64,000 bases of DNA from assembly GCA_050311575.1 (NCBI GenBank), contig JBNOKO010000001.1:1219099-1283098 (forward strand), in the 5' to 3' direction. Position numbers and translations under genes: made by a program. This document shows, piece after piece, positions 11,989 to 16,869 of this stretch (its first letter is position 1; every line of letters begins with the position of its first letter). This DNA comes from Candidatus Krakonobacterium acarorum. Its GTDB lineage: Bacteria; Bacteroidota; Bacteroidia; SolTP2. Under the pieces are notes generated by a model. That model was not told the DNA's origin. It made no database searches and worked only from the letters and a program-made list of their open reading frames with translations.

Positions 11989-13035
11989 TTACTTACAAGT
12001 ATTTCTTAGCTCGTCGTGGTCATCAATTTTGGGATAAACTATGTTTATTCTCCTTACATCTTCTGCCGATAATTCAGTATTTTCATAGATCCATGGGTCG
12101 CCAAATTTACTAGTTATTGCAGGCGTCACTAATGAAGCTAATAAGTTTCTAATCCAAGGATCTGAACTAAAAGAAGGTGTCATCATTATAGAATATCTAT
12201 CAAATTTGGGATCGTCTTTAATTACTCTCTGCGCTTGCAATGAAAACTTTAAGTTATTTGCAACTTTCTGTGTTGCAAATTGTATTAATGAATCTATGGC
12301 ATTTTGATGTATATTTATATATTGAGAGCTTTTAGGTCTTACGTTTTCATCAACATATCCTAATACATGCCCAAGCTGATGTACTATATCTGTAATCCCA
12401 CAATTATCAGTAAAATAAACTAATCCTTGATTATTAGGGCGTGCTCCAATAGTAGCAGCACAAAGTTTACCGTGATATTGACCGGCGTAGTATTTTATAA
12501 CCGTAGCTCCATCCGGAACCTTTTGGCCGTCTTTAACCGTTATCACGTGAAACTCAAGGTTCGGGTTAGCCTTTTTCCACACAGCTATCCCGTTTAGTAT
12601 AGCGTCTTCTAAACCATAAGACATATCGCTAATATTTAGGGCTAAAAATACCATATTGCACTGCCAGGTATTGGCTCCGGCAAATATGCATACAGGGTCA
12701 GTTTTTGGATTCCTGGTTTGTTTATTAACATCTATTTTAAATTCATTATGCTTATGCAACCTCGATAATTCTTCTATTTCAATAGAATCTTCATGTTTAA
12801 CGTTAGAGTATTTTTTAATAATTTTTACATCGTTCGTATTTATTAAATTGTGGCCATTATATAGCAGGAAATCTTTATCGTTTGCCAACTCTTTGAATAC
12901 CCTAACGTCTCCATTGTTTTTGTCTATTCCCAATGTATAATCTGCAGACTCATTTTCTATAATATTATTAGAAGATTTACTACAGGCTGATGTAAATATT
13001 ACTAGTGCTATAAATGCGAGCTTATTTATTTTCAT
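11989..13035 (-). CDS. Astacin-like (M12A) lipoprotein, predicted catalytically inactive (type B, copy 3)
   Basis: Lipobox FTSAC; degenerate zinc motif HQLGHVLGYVDENVRP (E to Q, third His to D); Met-turn-like SIMM; C-terminal LSAEDVRRIN. Confidence 0.8.
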   Translation of the reverse strand: MKINKLAFIALVIFTSACSKSSNNIIENESADYTLGIDKNNGDVRVFKELANDKDFLLYNGHNLINTNDVKIIKKYSNVKHEDSIEIEELSRLHKHNEFKIDVNKQTRNPKTDPVCIFAGANTWQCNMVFLALNISDMSYGLEDAILNGIAVWKKANPNLEFHVITVKDGQKVPDGATVIKYYAGQYHGKLCAATIGARPNNQGLVYFTDNCGITDIVHQLGHVLGYVDENVRPKSSQYINIHQNAIDSLIQFATQKVANNLKFSLQAQRVIKDDPKFDRYSIMMTPSFSSDPWIRNLLASLVTPAITSKFGDPWIYENTELSAEDVRRINIVYPKIDDHDELRNTCK

Positions 13036-13112
13036 GGATTTTATTTTTGTATGTTTATAAATTAGTCTAGGTTGTTATATTAGTTATTAATCTCAACACA
13101 GGTAGGTTATGG

Positions 13113-14273
13113 CTACAAGTGTTCGTTTACGGTATATCTATCAGTTGTAAGAGGGTATACTGTGTTCACTTTTTTTATATCCAAGTCAGATATCATTTTA
13201 TCCGGATCTGTAATTTCCGGATCTTGACACAACTCGTTTGAGTCCTTAGTGAGGAAAACCGGAGCATTATACCGCATTAATATTTCTCTTGCCTCGAGAG
13301 GGTAATATGAAGGATACATCGTGATAGATTTATGATCAAAAGGCGCCAGAGTAGTGTTATCACTGTATACATCATATTTTTGAATATATGAAGGTATCAT
13401 CATTTGATAATAATCTCCGGTTGGATCTGCAGTACCTGCAAGATTGTTAAAATCTAATACACTACTGTCCTGATTGTAGAATCCGGGTAATACCTCCATC
13501 AAAGCAGTTCTCTGAAATGTAATATAATTATCGCGTGATGGTCTCTGGTGCTCATGTATAAAACCAAAAGTATGAGCGAATTCGTGCACCACAGCTGATA
13601 ATTCCATGTGTTCAGATAACACGATCGCTCCCGGTATTCCTAACTCAGTTCCCACGGTCGCGTAGGCAACCTGGTCCGGGCTAAATCTGTATAGGTGTAC
13701 CGCTACTTTATAGGTACTGTCGCCTTTTATGTTTGCCTCTTCATAAGTTATAAACTCAAACCCTATATTAGTTTTTTCTCTCCATAATTCTATAGCTTTA
13801 TAAACTCTGTTTAATAAAGGGGCGGGCATATAGTTATCTATACCTATTCTAACAATACGGTCAGGCCATATACTGACTCCTTTCATTACACATACAAGAC
13901 TATCATTACTATATGAAGCCGGTAAAATATATTTATTAGTTTCATGTTCATTTATCAGTTTTGCCAGTTCGGTTTTATCTATTGGCTCGTTTTGCTTATA
14001 TATTTTTATCGGCTCTACCTGGCTTTTATGTATTAGAATATCGCCGCCTTTGGATAAAAAATCATGCGTTATATTTCTGTATAAATTTATTTCTCCATTG
14101 GTTTTATTAATACCTAATATAATATTGGTTCCTGTACTGCTTTGCTTCGAACTTGTTTCTGATTGTTTATTGATTATAAGGTCTTTTTTGCAAGATGATT
14201 GTGTAAGAAATACGAGCCCTAGCAGAAATACTATAAGTGCTGAGGTGTAAGAGAGATTTTTCGATAGTTTCAT
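13113..14273 (-). CDS. Astacin-family (M12A) zinc metalloprotease lipoprotein (type A, copy 3)
   Basis: Lipobox QSSC; HEFAHTFGFIHEHQRPSRDNY astacin signature; Met-turn SITMY. Confidence 0.9.
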   Translation of the reverse strand: MKLSKNLSYTSALIVFLLGLVFLTQSSCKKDLIINKQSETSSKQSSTGTNIILGINKTNGEINLYRNITHDFLSKGGDILIHKSQVEPIKIYKQNEPIDKTELAKLINEHETNKYILPASYSNDSLVCVMKGVSIWPDRIVRIGIDNYMPAPLLNRVYKAIELWREKTNIGFEFITYEEANIKGDSTYKVAVHLYRFSPDQVAYATVGTELGIPGAIVLSEHMELSAVVHEFAHTFGFIHEHQRPSRDNYITFQRTALMEVLPGFYNQDSSVLDFNNLAGTADPTGDYYQMMIPSYIQKYDVYSDNTTLAPFDHKSITMYPSYYPLEAREILMRYNAPVFLTKDSNELCQDPEITDPDKMISDLDIKKVNTVYPLTTDRYTVNEHL

Positions 14274-15619: not shown

Positions 15620-15723
15620 AACTTTTGTTATTTTATGTTTAAAAATTAGAACGGGTCTTTATATTGGTTATTAATTTCAGTCCATCTTAAATAGAGCTTA
15701 TCAGATATTCACTTTGAATATAT

Positions 15724-16869
15724 CTATAAATCGGATCTTAAAGGATATACCATGTTTACTCTTTTTATATCTAATTCAGTGAGCAGCTTATATGGATCTG
15801 TAATCTGTGGTTCGGAACATAAACGGTTTGTGAGTTTTTCGCGGTATATTGGAGCGTTGTATTCCATTAATATCTTTCTTACAGGATACATAGAGCCATA
15901 TGAAGCATAGTTCATGATAGAGTTGCAATCAAAAGGCGCCAGGTTAGTATCATCACTATATACAGGAAGTTTCTTGATCCATGATCTGACTACTATTCTA
16001 TAATAGAGTCCGCGTGGATTTGCAGTACCTTCAAGATCGTTAATATCTAATCGGCTAGGATCTTCGCTATATAGTATAGGCAATATCCCAATTAAAGCGG
16101 GTTCCTGAAATGTCATATAATTATCTCGTGATGGTCTCTGGTGCTCATGTATAAATCCCACAGTATGCCCCAATTCGTGGATTACAGAACTTAACATAAC
16201 GTCGGATGACAATACGAGCAATCCAGGCTTGCCTAAATTAGTTCCTATAGTAGCATAGGCAGATGTCGTTGTAGATTGACTATCAAATTTCACACACATT
16301 TTATAGGTGCTGTCACCCTTTATTATAGCTTCTTCATAAGGTATAACCTCAAATCCTATATTGGTTTGCTCTCTCCATATTTCCATAGCTTTAAAAAGTA
16401 GTAACCTCGCTCTATCAGGCAGCAGAGGGTCTATGCCCATTCGAACAATGCCATTAGGCCATATTGAAACTCCTTTGAATATCGCCACATAGTTGTCGGT
16501 GTTGTATAAAGACTTTACAATGTATTTATTTGAATTATGTTTAGTTATCAATTTTTTTAATTCAGCATTATCTATGGCTTCTCCTTCCTTATATACTTTT
16601 ATTGGCTCTACTATGCTTGTAGGGATTAGTATGTCAGTACCTTCTGATAAAAAATCTTCATATTCTGTAGTTTCATAGAGATCTACTACTCCATTGGTTT
16701 TATTAATACCTAATATCAGGTCGATCGTTTTAGTGCTTTGCTTCGAACTTGTTTGTAACGGTTTGTCAACTATAAATTCTTTTTTGCAAGATGATTGTAT
16801 AAGCAATACTGAGATTGACAGCAATACTATAAGTGCCGCAGTATAGGGACTATAATTCGATATCTTCAT
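15724..16869 (-). CDS. Astacin-family (M12A) zinc metalloprotease lipoprotein (type A, copy 2)
   Basis: Lipobox QSSC; HELGHTVGFIHEHQRPSRDNY; Met-turn SIMNY; paralog of 13113-14273. Confidence 0.9.
   Translation of the reverse strand: MKISNYSPYTAALIVLLSISVLLIQSSCKKEFIVDKPLQTSSKQSTKTIDLILGINKTNGVVDLYETTEYEDFLSEGTDILIPTSIVEPIKVYKEGEAIDNAELKKLITKHNSNKYIVKSLYNTDNYVAIFKGVSIWPNGIVRMGIDPLLPDRARLLLFKAMEIWREQTNIGFEVIPYEEAIIKGDSTYKMCVKFDSQSTTTSAYATIGTNLGKPGLLVLSSDVMLSSVIHELGHTVGFIHEHQRPSRDNYMTFQEPALIGILPILYSEDPSRLDINDLEGTANPRGLYYRIVVRSWIKKLPVYSDDTNLAPFDCNSIMNYASYGSMYPVRKILMEYNAPIYREKLTNRLCSEPQITDPYKLLTELDIKRVNMVYPLRSDL

Follow-up and report, generated by a model that had tools for sequence, protein, structure and literature searches.

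Described astacins carry a PP motif (F-E-G-D-I), an aspartate switch, a family-specific Glu, and a Tyr switch (PMC9629494), and the FxGDI motif of the pro-segment also appears in the astacin review PMC9848320. Bacterial members of this family (M12A) include myroilysin, which relies on a cysteine switch (PMC9629494), and flavastacin, both active enzymes of Bacteroidota. Inactive homologues from family M12 have been studied extensively in animals, where the metzincin-fold ADAM pseudopeptidases of subfamily M12B (e.g., ADAM7 with HQLGH or ADAM29 with HHLGH) act by protein-protein contacts (PMC11266112, Table 2), and in BepA, an M48 metallopeptidase of E. coli, a histidine serves as a reversible fourth zinc ligand (bioRxiv 10.1101/2020.07.07.192476). 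The available portions of the 2024 pseudopeptidase review (PMC11266112) include no astacin or bacterial pseudopeptidase, those of the 2023 astacin review (PMC9848320) give no bacterial or astacin-type example and contain the words "inactive" and "lipoprotein" 0 times, and a full-text literature search, judged by titles and abstract openings, returned no catalytically inactive astacin. Here we analyze a window (the whole stretch of DNA under study) of 64,000 nucleotides of Candidatus Krakonobacterium acarorum (GCA_050311575.1, JBNOKO010000001.1, 1,219,099-1,283,098 of the forward strand), which holds four intact astacin-type open reading frames (ORFs) on the minus strand in the alternating order A2-B2-A1-B1. 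The two A genes are of the active type and the two B genes are catalytically dead. Our best explanation, held with moderate confidence, is that the B1/B2 clade comprises permanently latent zymogen mimics acting non-catalytically at the cell envelope. The four genes, each called as an ORF, are as follows.

15724..16869, minus strand: A2, active-type astacin-like putative lipoprotein of 381 amino acids (aa); Pfam Astacin, 51.8 bits; HELGHTVGFIHEH; SIMNY; pro-segment GTDILI
14582..15619, minus strand: B2, catalytically dead astacin-fold putative lipoprotein of 345 aa; 41.3 bits; AF2 model; HNIGHVLGYVDEN; SIMMI; pro-segment NGHNLI
13113..14273, minus strand: A1, active-type astacin-like putative lipoprotein of 386 aa; 51.3 bits; HEFAHTFGFIHEH; SITMY; pro-segment GGDILI
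11989..13035, minus strand: B1, catalytically dead astacin-fold putative lipoprotein of 348 aa; 40.8 bits; HQLGHVLGYVDEN; SIMMT; pro-segment NGHNLI

All four proteins belong to the astacin family by profile, with scores of 51.3-51.8 bits for the A proteins and 40.8-41.3 bits for the B proteins against a Pfam Astacin (PF01400) cut-off of 22.5 bits. Among PDB structures, the family profile matches BMP-1 (E 6.6e-17), tolloid, meprins, astacin, and myroilysin (5czw, 5gwd, 5zjk; E 7e-6). In the alignment of the zinc-motif region (A2, HELGHTVGFIHEHQRPSRD; A1, HEFAHTFGFIHEHQRPSRD; B2, HNIGHVLGYVDENVRPKS; B1, HQLGHVLGYVDENVRPKS), A1 and A2 carry HExxHxxGFIHEHQRPSRD and conform to the consensus HExxHxxGxxHE with its Glu base, which B1 (HQLGHVLGYVDE) and B2 (HNIGHVLGYVDE) fail. 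The B motifs read HNIGH or HQLGH followed by GYVDEN, i.e., the general-base Glu is replaced by Asn or Gln and the third zinc ligand changes from His to Asp. A preliminary description of the locus had noted both substitutions, and the alignments bear it out and add a third loss: the zinc-ligating Tyr of the Met-turn (SxMxY) is gone from B (SIMMI in B2, SIMMT in B1), with the Met retained. Its claim that the A proteins keep both the HExxH motif and the Met-turn stands in full for A2 (SIMNY); A1 keeps the zinc motif and the Tyr, and its Met-turn reads SITMY, with Thr at the usual Met position. The family-specific Glu that follows the third ligand is invariant across the nine lineage members aligned (E229 of B2). 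Judged by its sequence, B lacks the residues required for metzincin catalysis and, because three defining features of an active astacin fail in it, is a non-peptidase homologue of M12A rather than an active member. Similarity to LegP (NCBIfam NF045530) is weak and limited to the astacin domain (43-61 bits): at 42.6-61.2 bits, the window proteins miss its equivalog cut-off of 300 bits and are not members.

The B genes are kept intact by purifying selection and are not decaying. Between B1 and B2, 30% of the aligned nucleotides and 39% of the residues differ, with neither a stop nor a frameshift. Rough estimates of the ratio of nonsynonymous to synonymous substitution rates (dN/dS) are 0.39 (NG86), 0.59 (LWL85), and 0.21 (YN00) for B1/B2, and 0.34-0.35 (NG86) and 0.43 (LWL85) for A1/A2. 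Over 300 codon-bootstrap replicates, the ratio ranged from 0.28 to 0.55 for B and from 0.25 to 0.46 for A, with 0/300 at or above 1 in every set, so that the neutrality between B copies against which the preliminary description had set its claim of selection is not seen. In a neutral simulation with substitutions only, 0/2000 copies remained free of stops at 15% change per site, compared with 0.3-0.45% at 10%. Decayed astacin copies in the same genome and nearby show the look of unselected copies.

The predicted structure likewise retains the family fold. The AF2 model of B2 reaches a pLDDT of 90.4 and a pTM of 0.87 (A2, 86.2 and 0.83, with an A-specific low-confidence insert at 279-286), and astacin (1ast, residues 1-200) superposes on its residues 117-336 with Z 18.3 and an rmsd of 2.4 over 191 residues; BMP-1 (3edh) gives Z 18.0 and myroilysin Z 16.1, and Foldseek supports the astacin fold of the B2 model with E 5.7e-11. 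Astacin zymogens (3lq0; pro-LAST-MAM 8a28; pro-meprins) share this catalytic-domain fold (Z 17.9-18.3). The zymogens 3lq0 (from 13P) and 8a28 (from 31) align from B2 residues 46/47, in the segment holding His62, in alignments known by their end points and not by residue pairs; the N-terminal beta-rich domain of B2 therefore probably takes the place of the pro-segment. As in the zymogens, an FxGDI-like motif stands at the same alignment column and the Glu after the third ligand is kept. Unlike them, B has His for the capping Asp and Asp for the third His, has lost the Glu base and the Tyr, possesses a pro-region that is an ~85-residue beta-rich domain rather than a short peptide, and begins with a lipobox-like Cys rather than a plain secretion signal. 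The linker at about residues 104-116 (window ~15272-15310 in B2) reads QTRNP in 4/4 B-clade proteins, and its block 101-110 is the least confident internal segment of the model (pLDDT 67); a site of recognition or processing may lie here.

By eye, each N terminus consists of a hydrophobic leader followed by Cys (...IFASAC/NK, ...IFTSAC/SK, ...LIQSSC/KK, ...LTQSSC/KK), and B1 gives a weak NCBIfam lipoprotein-leader match (E 0.012). The A and B proteins have this Cys, the LGIDKNNG motif, and a C-terminal ELRxTCK in common, in line with the preliminary description of B as a full-length protein with these elements conserved.

The comparison was extended to the whole genome and to public sequence collections. 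The complete genome (1,312,108 bases, 31.8% GC) yields nine Astacin-profile matches, seven of them intact genes and two fragments. The intact set comprises A1, A2, B1, B2, a B0-A0 pair that precedes the window by ~1-3 kb, and Y, an active-type gene standing alone (genome 452422-453489); one more decayed B copy was located by protein search. A word-indexed search of Logan assemblies provided two relatives of B2, P0002 and P0004 (53-54% identity), with the motif HHIGHVLGY[IV]DEN, i.e., His at the Glu site, and SIMM[VT]. A profile search of 1.84 billion representatives returned 758 hits (E <= 0.001), and motifs were read for the best 150, among which the canonical HExxHxxGxxH occurs in 139. The B types among these 150 are P0004 and P0005, the latter 77% identical to B0; P0042 and P0100 are unrelated hits without the Glu, P0140 has Asp as the third ligand with an intact HELGH, three carry Asn or Gln as third ligand, and three are motif-less fragments. 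In a tree of 31 rows (the seven intact genes and 24 hand-picked near-full-length top hits), 13 rows fall into one lineage-specific clade (support 100/99), inside which the six B-type rows group together (88/66). One change of state suffices to explain this distribution, and the B state arose once in the lineage. Across the six B-type proteins the general-base position reads Q, N, H, H, N, and N, and the Tyr is absent in all six; in B1, B2, P0002, and P0004, the Glu site varies (Q, N, H) although the neighboring residues are fixed.

No B homologue was found in the 40 nearest GTDB genomes, which are all merely of the same class. Any Astacin match occurs in 22/400 sampled genomes of the class, the richest with 4; among the loci from those 22 genomes, the Glu is missing from a single weak match (L039, HQFGH), and an adjacent pair in G284 is active/active. 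A scan of JGI metagenomes with the B alignment matched 528 pattern stretches, 0 of which were confirmed.

The residue changes in B1 and B2 are correlated between the pro-segment and the zinc site. A 97-row alignment was assembled from the seven intact genes, P0002, P0004, and 88 hits drawn from the 115 among the best 150 that measure 200-480 aa, the window's own copies, multi-domain rows, and fragments having been left out by hand with no formal rule. Its aspartate-switch column contains D in 82 rows, a gap in 9, H in 4, N in 1, and A in 1. The four H rows are B1, B2, P0002, and P0004, exactly those with Asp at the third zinc ligand; the capping Asp of FxGDI is present in A1, A2, A0, Y, B0, and P0005. 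On this alignment, the ligand set of the latent state (three His and one Asp) would be preserved in B through an exchange between pro-domain and catalytic domain. A Cys pair that is nearly invariant in the 97 relatives (columns B2 C191 and C211) is absent from A1, A2, and A0, and kept in B1, B2, B0, and Y.

The pro-domain is also the best conserved part of B. Identity between B1 and B2 is 76% in the pro-domain versus 53% in the catalytic-like part, and that between B1 and P0004 is 68% versus 52%; the same split in active proteins gives 57/57 for A1/A2, and 48/56 and 34/45 for other pairs. The corresponding dN/dS values are 0.20 versus 0.47 for B1/B2 and 0.35 versus 0.32 for A1/A2. Since the dS of B1/B2 is alike in both parts (0.77 and 0.84), recent gene conversion does not account for the low pro-domain value. 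A domain so conserved is probably not discarded.

These observations suggest how a permanently latent zymogen mimic could have arisen and work. Replacement of the general-base Glu by Asn/Gln and of the Tyr-switch residue by Ile/Thr would have abolished peptide-bond cutting by metzincin chemistry, and the zinc site would have been rearranged, not destroyed, as the third ligand went from His to Asp and the pro-segment cap from Asp to His. The N-terminal pro-domain would remain plugged in the cleft as the functional and most constrained part of the molecule, and B would act by binding, non-catalytically, at the cell envelope. Its gene adjoins that of an active astacin and has been duplicated with it, behind the gene of a fiber-like secreted protein. 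Zinc would be retained and activation would not occur. More tentatively, B may be a natural locked zymogen, whose reciprocal ligand exchange, together with the lost base and Tyr switch, fixes the latent state permanently and leaves the pro-domain as the working part. Two of the roles offered in the preliminary description, a decoy for host inhibitors and a cleft-based substrate adaptor, appear less likely if B's own conserved pro-domain plugs the cleft, as the conservation pattern suggests.

Parallels with described systems are partial. The ADAM pseudopeptidases resemble B in combining a metzincin fold and a Met-turn Met with Gln or His in place of the Glu; unlike B, they are eukaryotic, multidomain, transmembrane M12B proteins, and no ligand swap with the pro-domain is described for them in the available portions of PMC11266112. 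Myroilysin and flavastacin are, like the window proteins, bacterial M12A proteins of Bacteroidota; both are active enzymes, and in the window proteins the motif is of the aspartate type (A) or has His instead (B). BepA would share with B a histidine that closes a metallopeptidase site as the fourth zinc ligand. Unlike B, it is active, reversibly regulated, and from another family, and opening such a switch in B would not yield a protease because the general base is also missing.

Several points weigh against this interpretation. B0 and P0005 retain the pro-segment Asp and have Asn at the third ligand, with no swap, and their identity is higher in the catalytic-like part (83%) than in the pro-domain (64%). 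Asn is a poor zinc ligand. The locked-zinc reading leaves these two proteins uncovered, and the proposed mechanism is therefore limited to the B1/B2 clade. The swap is a single evolutionary event in one clade and hence statistically untestable, and structural support for placing His62 near the zinc site consists of the zymogen alignments that start near residue 46. P0002 and P0004 lack one Cys of the conserved pair. The lipid anchor of B is suggested by a lipobox judged by eye. The dN/dS values are rough because dS is near saturation (~0.8-1.4), and the three methods disagree for B1/B2; moreover, the bootstrap ranges of A and B overlap, and constraint on the catalytic-like part is weaker in B1/B2 than in the A proteins. 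Finally, transcription is weakly hinted at by two RNA-Seq libraries from different studies, with 155-236-base contig pieces of B1, A1, and the neighboring ORF318 (100% identity, depth 2-4) that could also be DNA carry-over. Pieces from these libraries cover neither B2 nor A2, one RNA run with pieces of the locus is labeled "mite metagenome," and a polyA RNA run (X24), with 0 reads, does not bear on expression.

The surroundings of the four genes bear on how B relates to A. The array lies inside an rRNA operon, as the 16S gene stands on one flank and the tRNA, 23S, and 5S genes on the other.

19182..20709, minus strand: 16S rRNA gene, upstream flank of the array (Rfam)
17470..18426, minus strand: ORF318, secreted fiber-like protein (ORF)
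17390..17460, minus strand: A3 remnant, A-type signal-peptide region, deletion-fused to the B3 remnant (blastn and frame-2 translation)
17051..17330, minus strand: B3 remnant, what is left of a third B gene after decay (its C-terminal third), interrupted by in-frame TGA and TAA codons, ending ...KVYPKIDDQDDLKTTCK
14298..14481, minus strand: ORF318 3'-end remnant between B2 and A1, border of the duplicated unit (tblastn, blastn)
11697..11872, minus strand: tRNA-Ile(GAT) and tRNA-Ala(TGC), downstream flank
8146-11044 and 7984-8096, minus strand: 23S and 5S rRNA genes, respectively, beyond the tRNA pair

A tandem duplication is evident from self-blastn, in which 16954-14578 aligns with 14358-11985 (69.8% over 2421 nt); the duplicated unit comprises the ORF318 3' end, A, and B. 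Its border is marked by a blastn match of 17653-17390 to 14482-14211 (77%). In a third unit, beside the intact ORF318, the end of a B gene (its last third) is fused by a single deletion to an A-type signal-peptide region: 17533-17409 matches 16954-16829 (75%) on the A side, and the B3 remnant has a protein match at 49% identity with two internal stops, along with blastn matches to the 3' ends of B1 and B2.

Co-duplication raises the possibility that B is a dedicated partner of the adjoining A protein (heterodimer subunit, trans-inhibitor, chaperone, or A substrate), with each pair a functional unit, which we regard as unlikely but the strongest of the alternatives. Cooperation between the two would agree with the short same-strand A-to-B spacers (104 and 77 nt), the duplication of the [A-B] unit as a block, the loss of A and B together in the deletion of the third unit, the B0-A0 pair upstream of the window (82 nt apart), and the derivation of P0005 and P0006 each from a 3592-base contig, which is probably the same one, a view resting solely on equal size. 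The QTRNP linker, conserved despite its low model confidence, would also suit a processing or recognition site. Adjacency does not carry the claim, however, because tandem duplication explains it at least partly, and could give rise to it alone. Gene order differs as well, B0 preceding A0 upstream whereas A precedes B within the window, and no A-B spanning transcript is present among the RNA-library pieces. No A1/A2-type orthologue was found outside the organism, the search returning only its own copies and P0006 (31%) at near lengths and none among shorter proteins, yet B-type relatives exist. Prediction of an A2:B2 complex (mature parts, 97-row alignments) scored 0.00 versus a mark of 0.32, without controls, and speaks neither for nor against binding. 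Of the preliminary description's claims, then, a selected and non-catalytic B is sustained by dN/dS, simulation, relatives, and fold, and B as a physical partner, inhibitor, or adaptor of A is not. The pairing of each active astacin with a pseudoprotease holds for three of the four intact active-type genes (A1, A2, and A0, which lies just outside the window) and fails for Y, which has no B neighbor.

A less probable alternative is that B works alone as a binding protein (adhesin, host or fiber binding) and adjoins A only through duplication history. B-type relatives found without A1/A2-type orthologues are in its favor, as is the conservation of B0, which is more similar to P0005 (77%) than its active neighbor A0 is to P0009 (54%) or P0006 (41%). 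Besides ORF318, the genome contains three intact paralogues and one remnant, all of them located immediately upstream of astacin arrays, and two fiber-like genes overlap the gene that follows, ORF256 with B0 by 14 nt and ORF313 with Y by 8 nt; the fixed link may thus be between a fiber gene and an astacin-fold gene, not between A and B. Against solitary binding, the analysis turned up neither a ligand nor a binding surface for B, and the contigs of the public B-type relatives are so short (1469 and 2235 bases) that they may have missed A-type neighbors. ORF318 itself matches no Pfam, NCBIfam, or PHROG family, and its Atlas neighbors (Bacteroidota, score 0.97) are named "tail fiber domain-containing" or "cell wall anchor."

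That B is still a hydrolase, working by a non-canonical mechanism or on a non-canonical substrate, is very improbable. In its favor, the metal site still has two His and one Asp, Asp as the third ligand is the rule in snapalysin-type metzincins, and P0140 shows that it can coexist with an intact HELGH. Against it, the general-base position of the B-type proteins is unconserved, the intermediate-stabilizing Tyr is lost from all six, and the pro-segment has His where the zinc is usually capped. Young pseudogenes in neutral drift that are open by chance, as a reduced genome with several decayed astacin copies and a variable Glu position might suggest, are hardly credible and in practice refuted by the simulation set against 30% B1/B2 divergence, the dN/dS, the intact relatives in which the B state persists (53-54% and 77% identity), and the high-confidence fold, as the preliminary description had argued against simple decay.

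Insertion of protein genes between the 16S gene and the tRNA-Ile/tRNA-Ala/23S genes is common to both rRNA operons of the genome. The operon in the window (8146-20709, minus strand) contains an ~7.3 kb insert with ORF318 and the astacin array, and the other (~451.5-455.5 kb of the genome) holds an ORF318 paralogue and the lone astacin Y in the same spacer position; the two operons are 93.7% identical over 1687 nt reaching from the end of the 16S gene into ORF318, and in the tRNA region their identity is 100%. A third module, at genome 1214948-1218805, consists of the fiber-like ORF256, B0 (HNIGHILGFVNEE), and A0 (HELGHAIGFSHEH), followed by a 139-codon A-type fragment. Genome 1299583-1303498 holds the broken remains of another astacin gene, one of them a HALGH frame at 1301137-1301412, amid several uncharacterized paralogous genes for small lipoprotein-like products (~230-240 aa). 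One Logan contig (run X7) joins window 12170 to 17235, skipping 5064 bases, with 35 letters fitting both sides; the junction links the 3' part of B1 to the B3 remnant and may come from a strain that lacks A2-B2-A1 or from collapse of the assembly over the repeat. A perfect palindrome (16975-17006; 14-bp stem, loop of 4, ATATACATAGGTAT/ATACCTATGTATAT) in the interval from the B3 remnant to A2 could be a terminator on either strand. The promoter/terminator scan (31 promoter-like sites versus 41.6 expected; 4 terminator-like versus 3.5) was uninformative on operon structure.

If B is indeed a locked zymogen, a latency mechanism, and not an active enzyme, would have been recruited to build a pseudoenzyme, and this pseudoenzyme would be deployed on the envelope together with active astacins and a fiber protein. 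The apparent swap of zinc ligands between the two domains, if confirmed, would represent a clear case of compensatory evolution at a metal site. With four small genes and decayed copies as an internal control, the locus offers a compact system in which to follow the passage from a zymogen to a stable non-enzyme. It also raises the question of why a 1.31 Mb genome spends seven intact genes on the astacin family.

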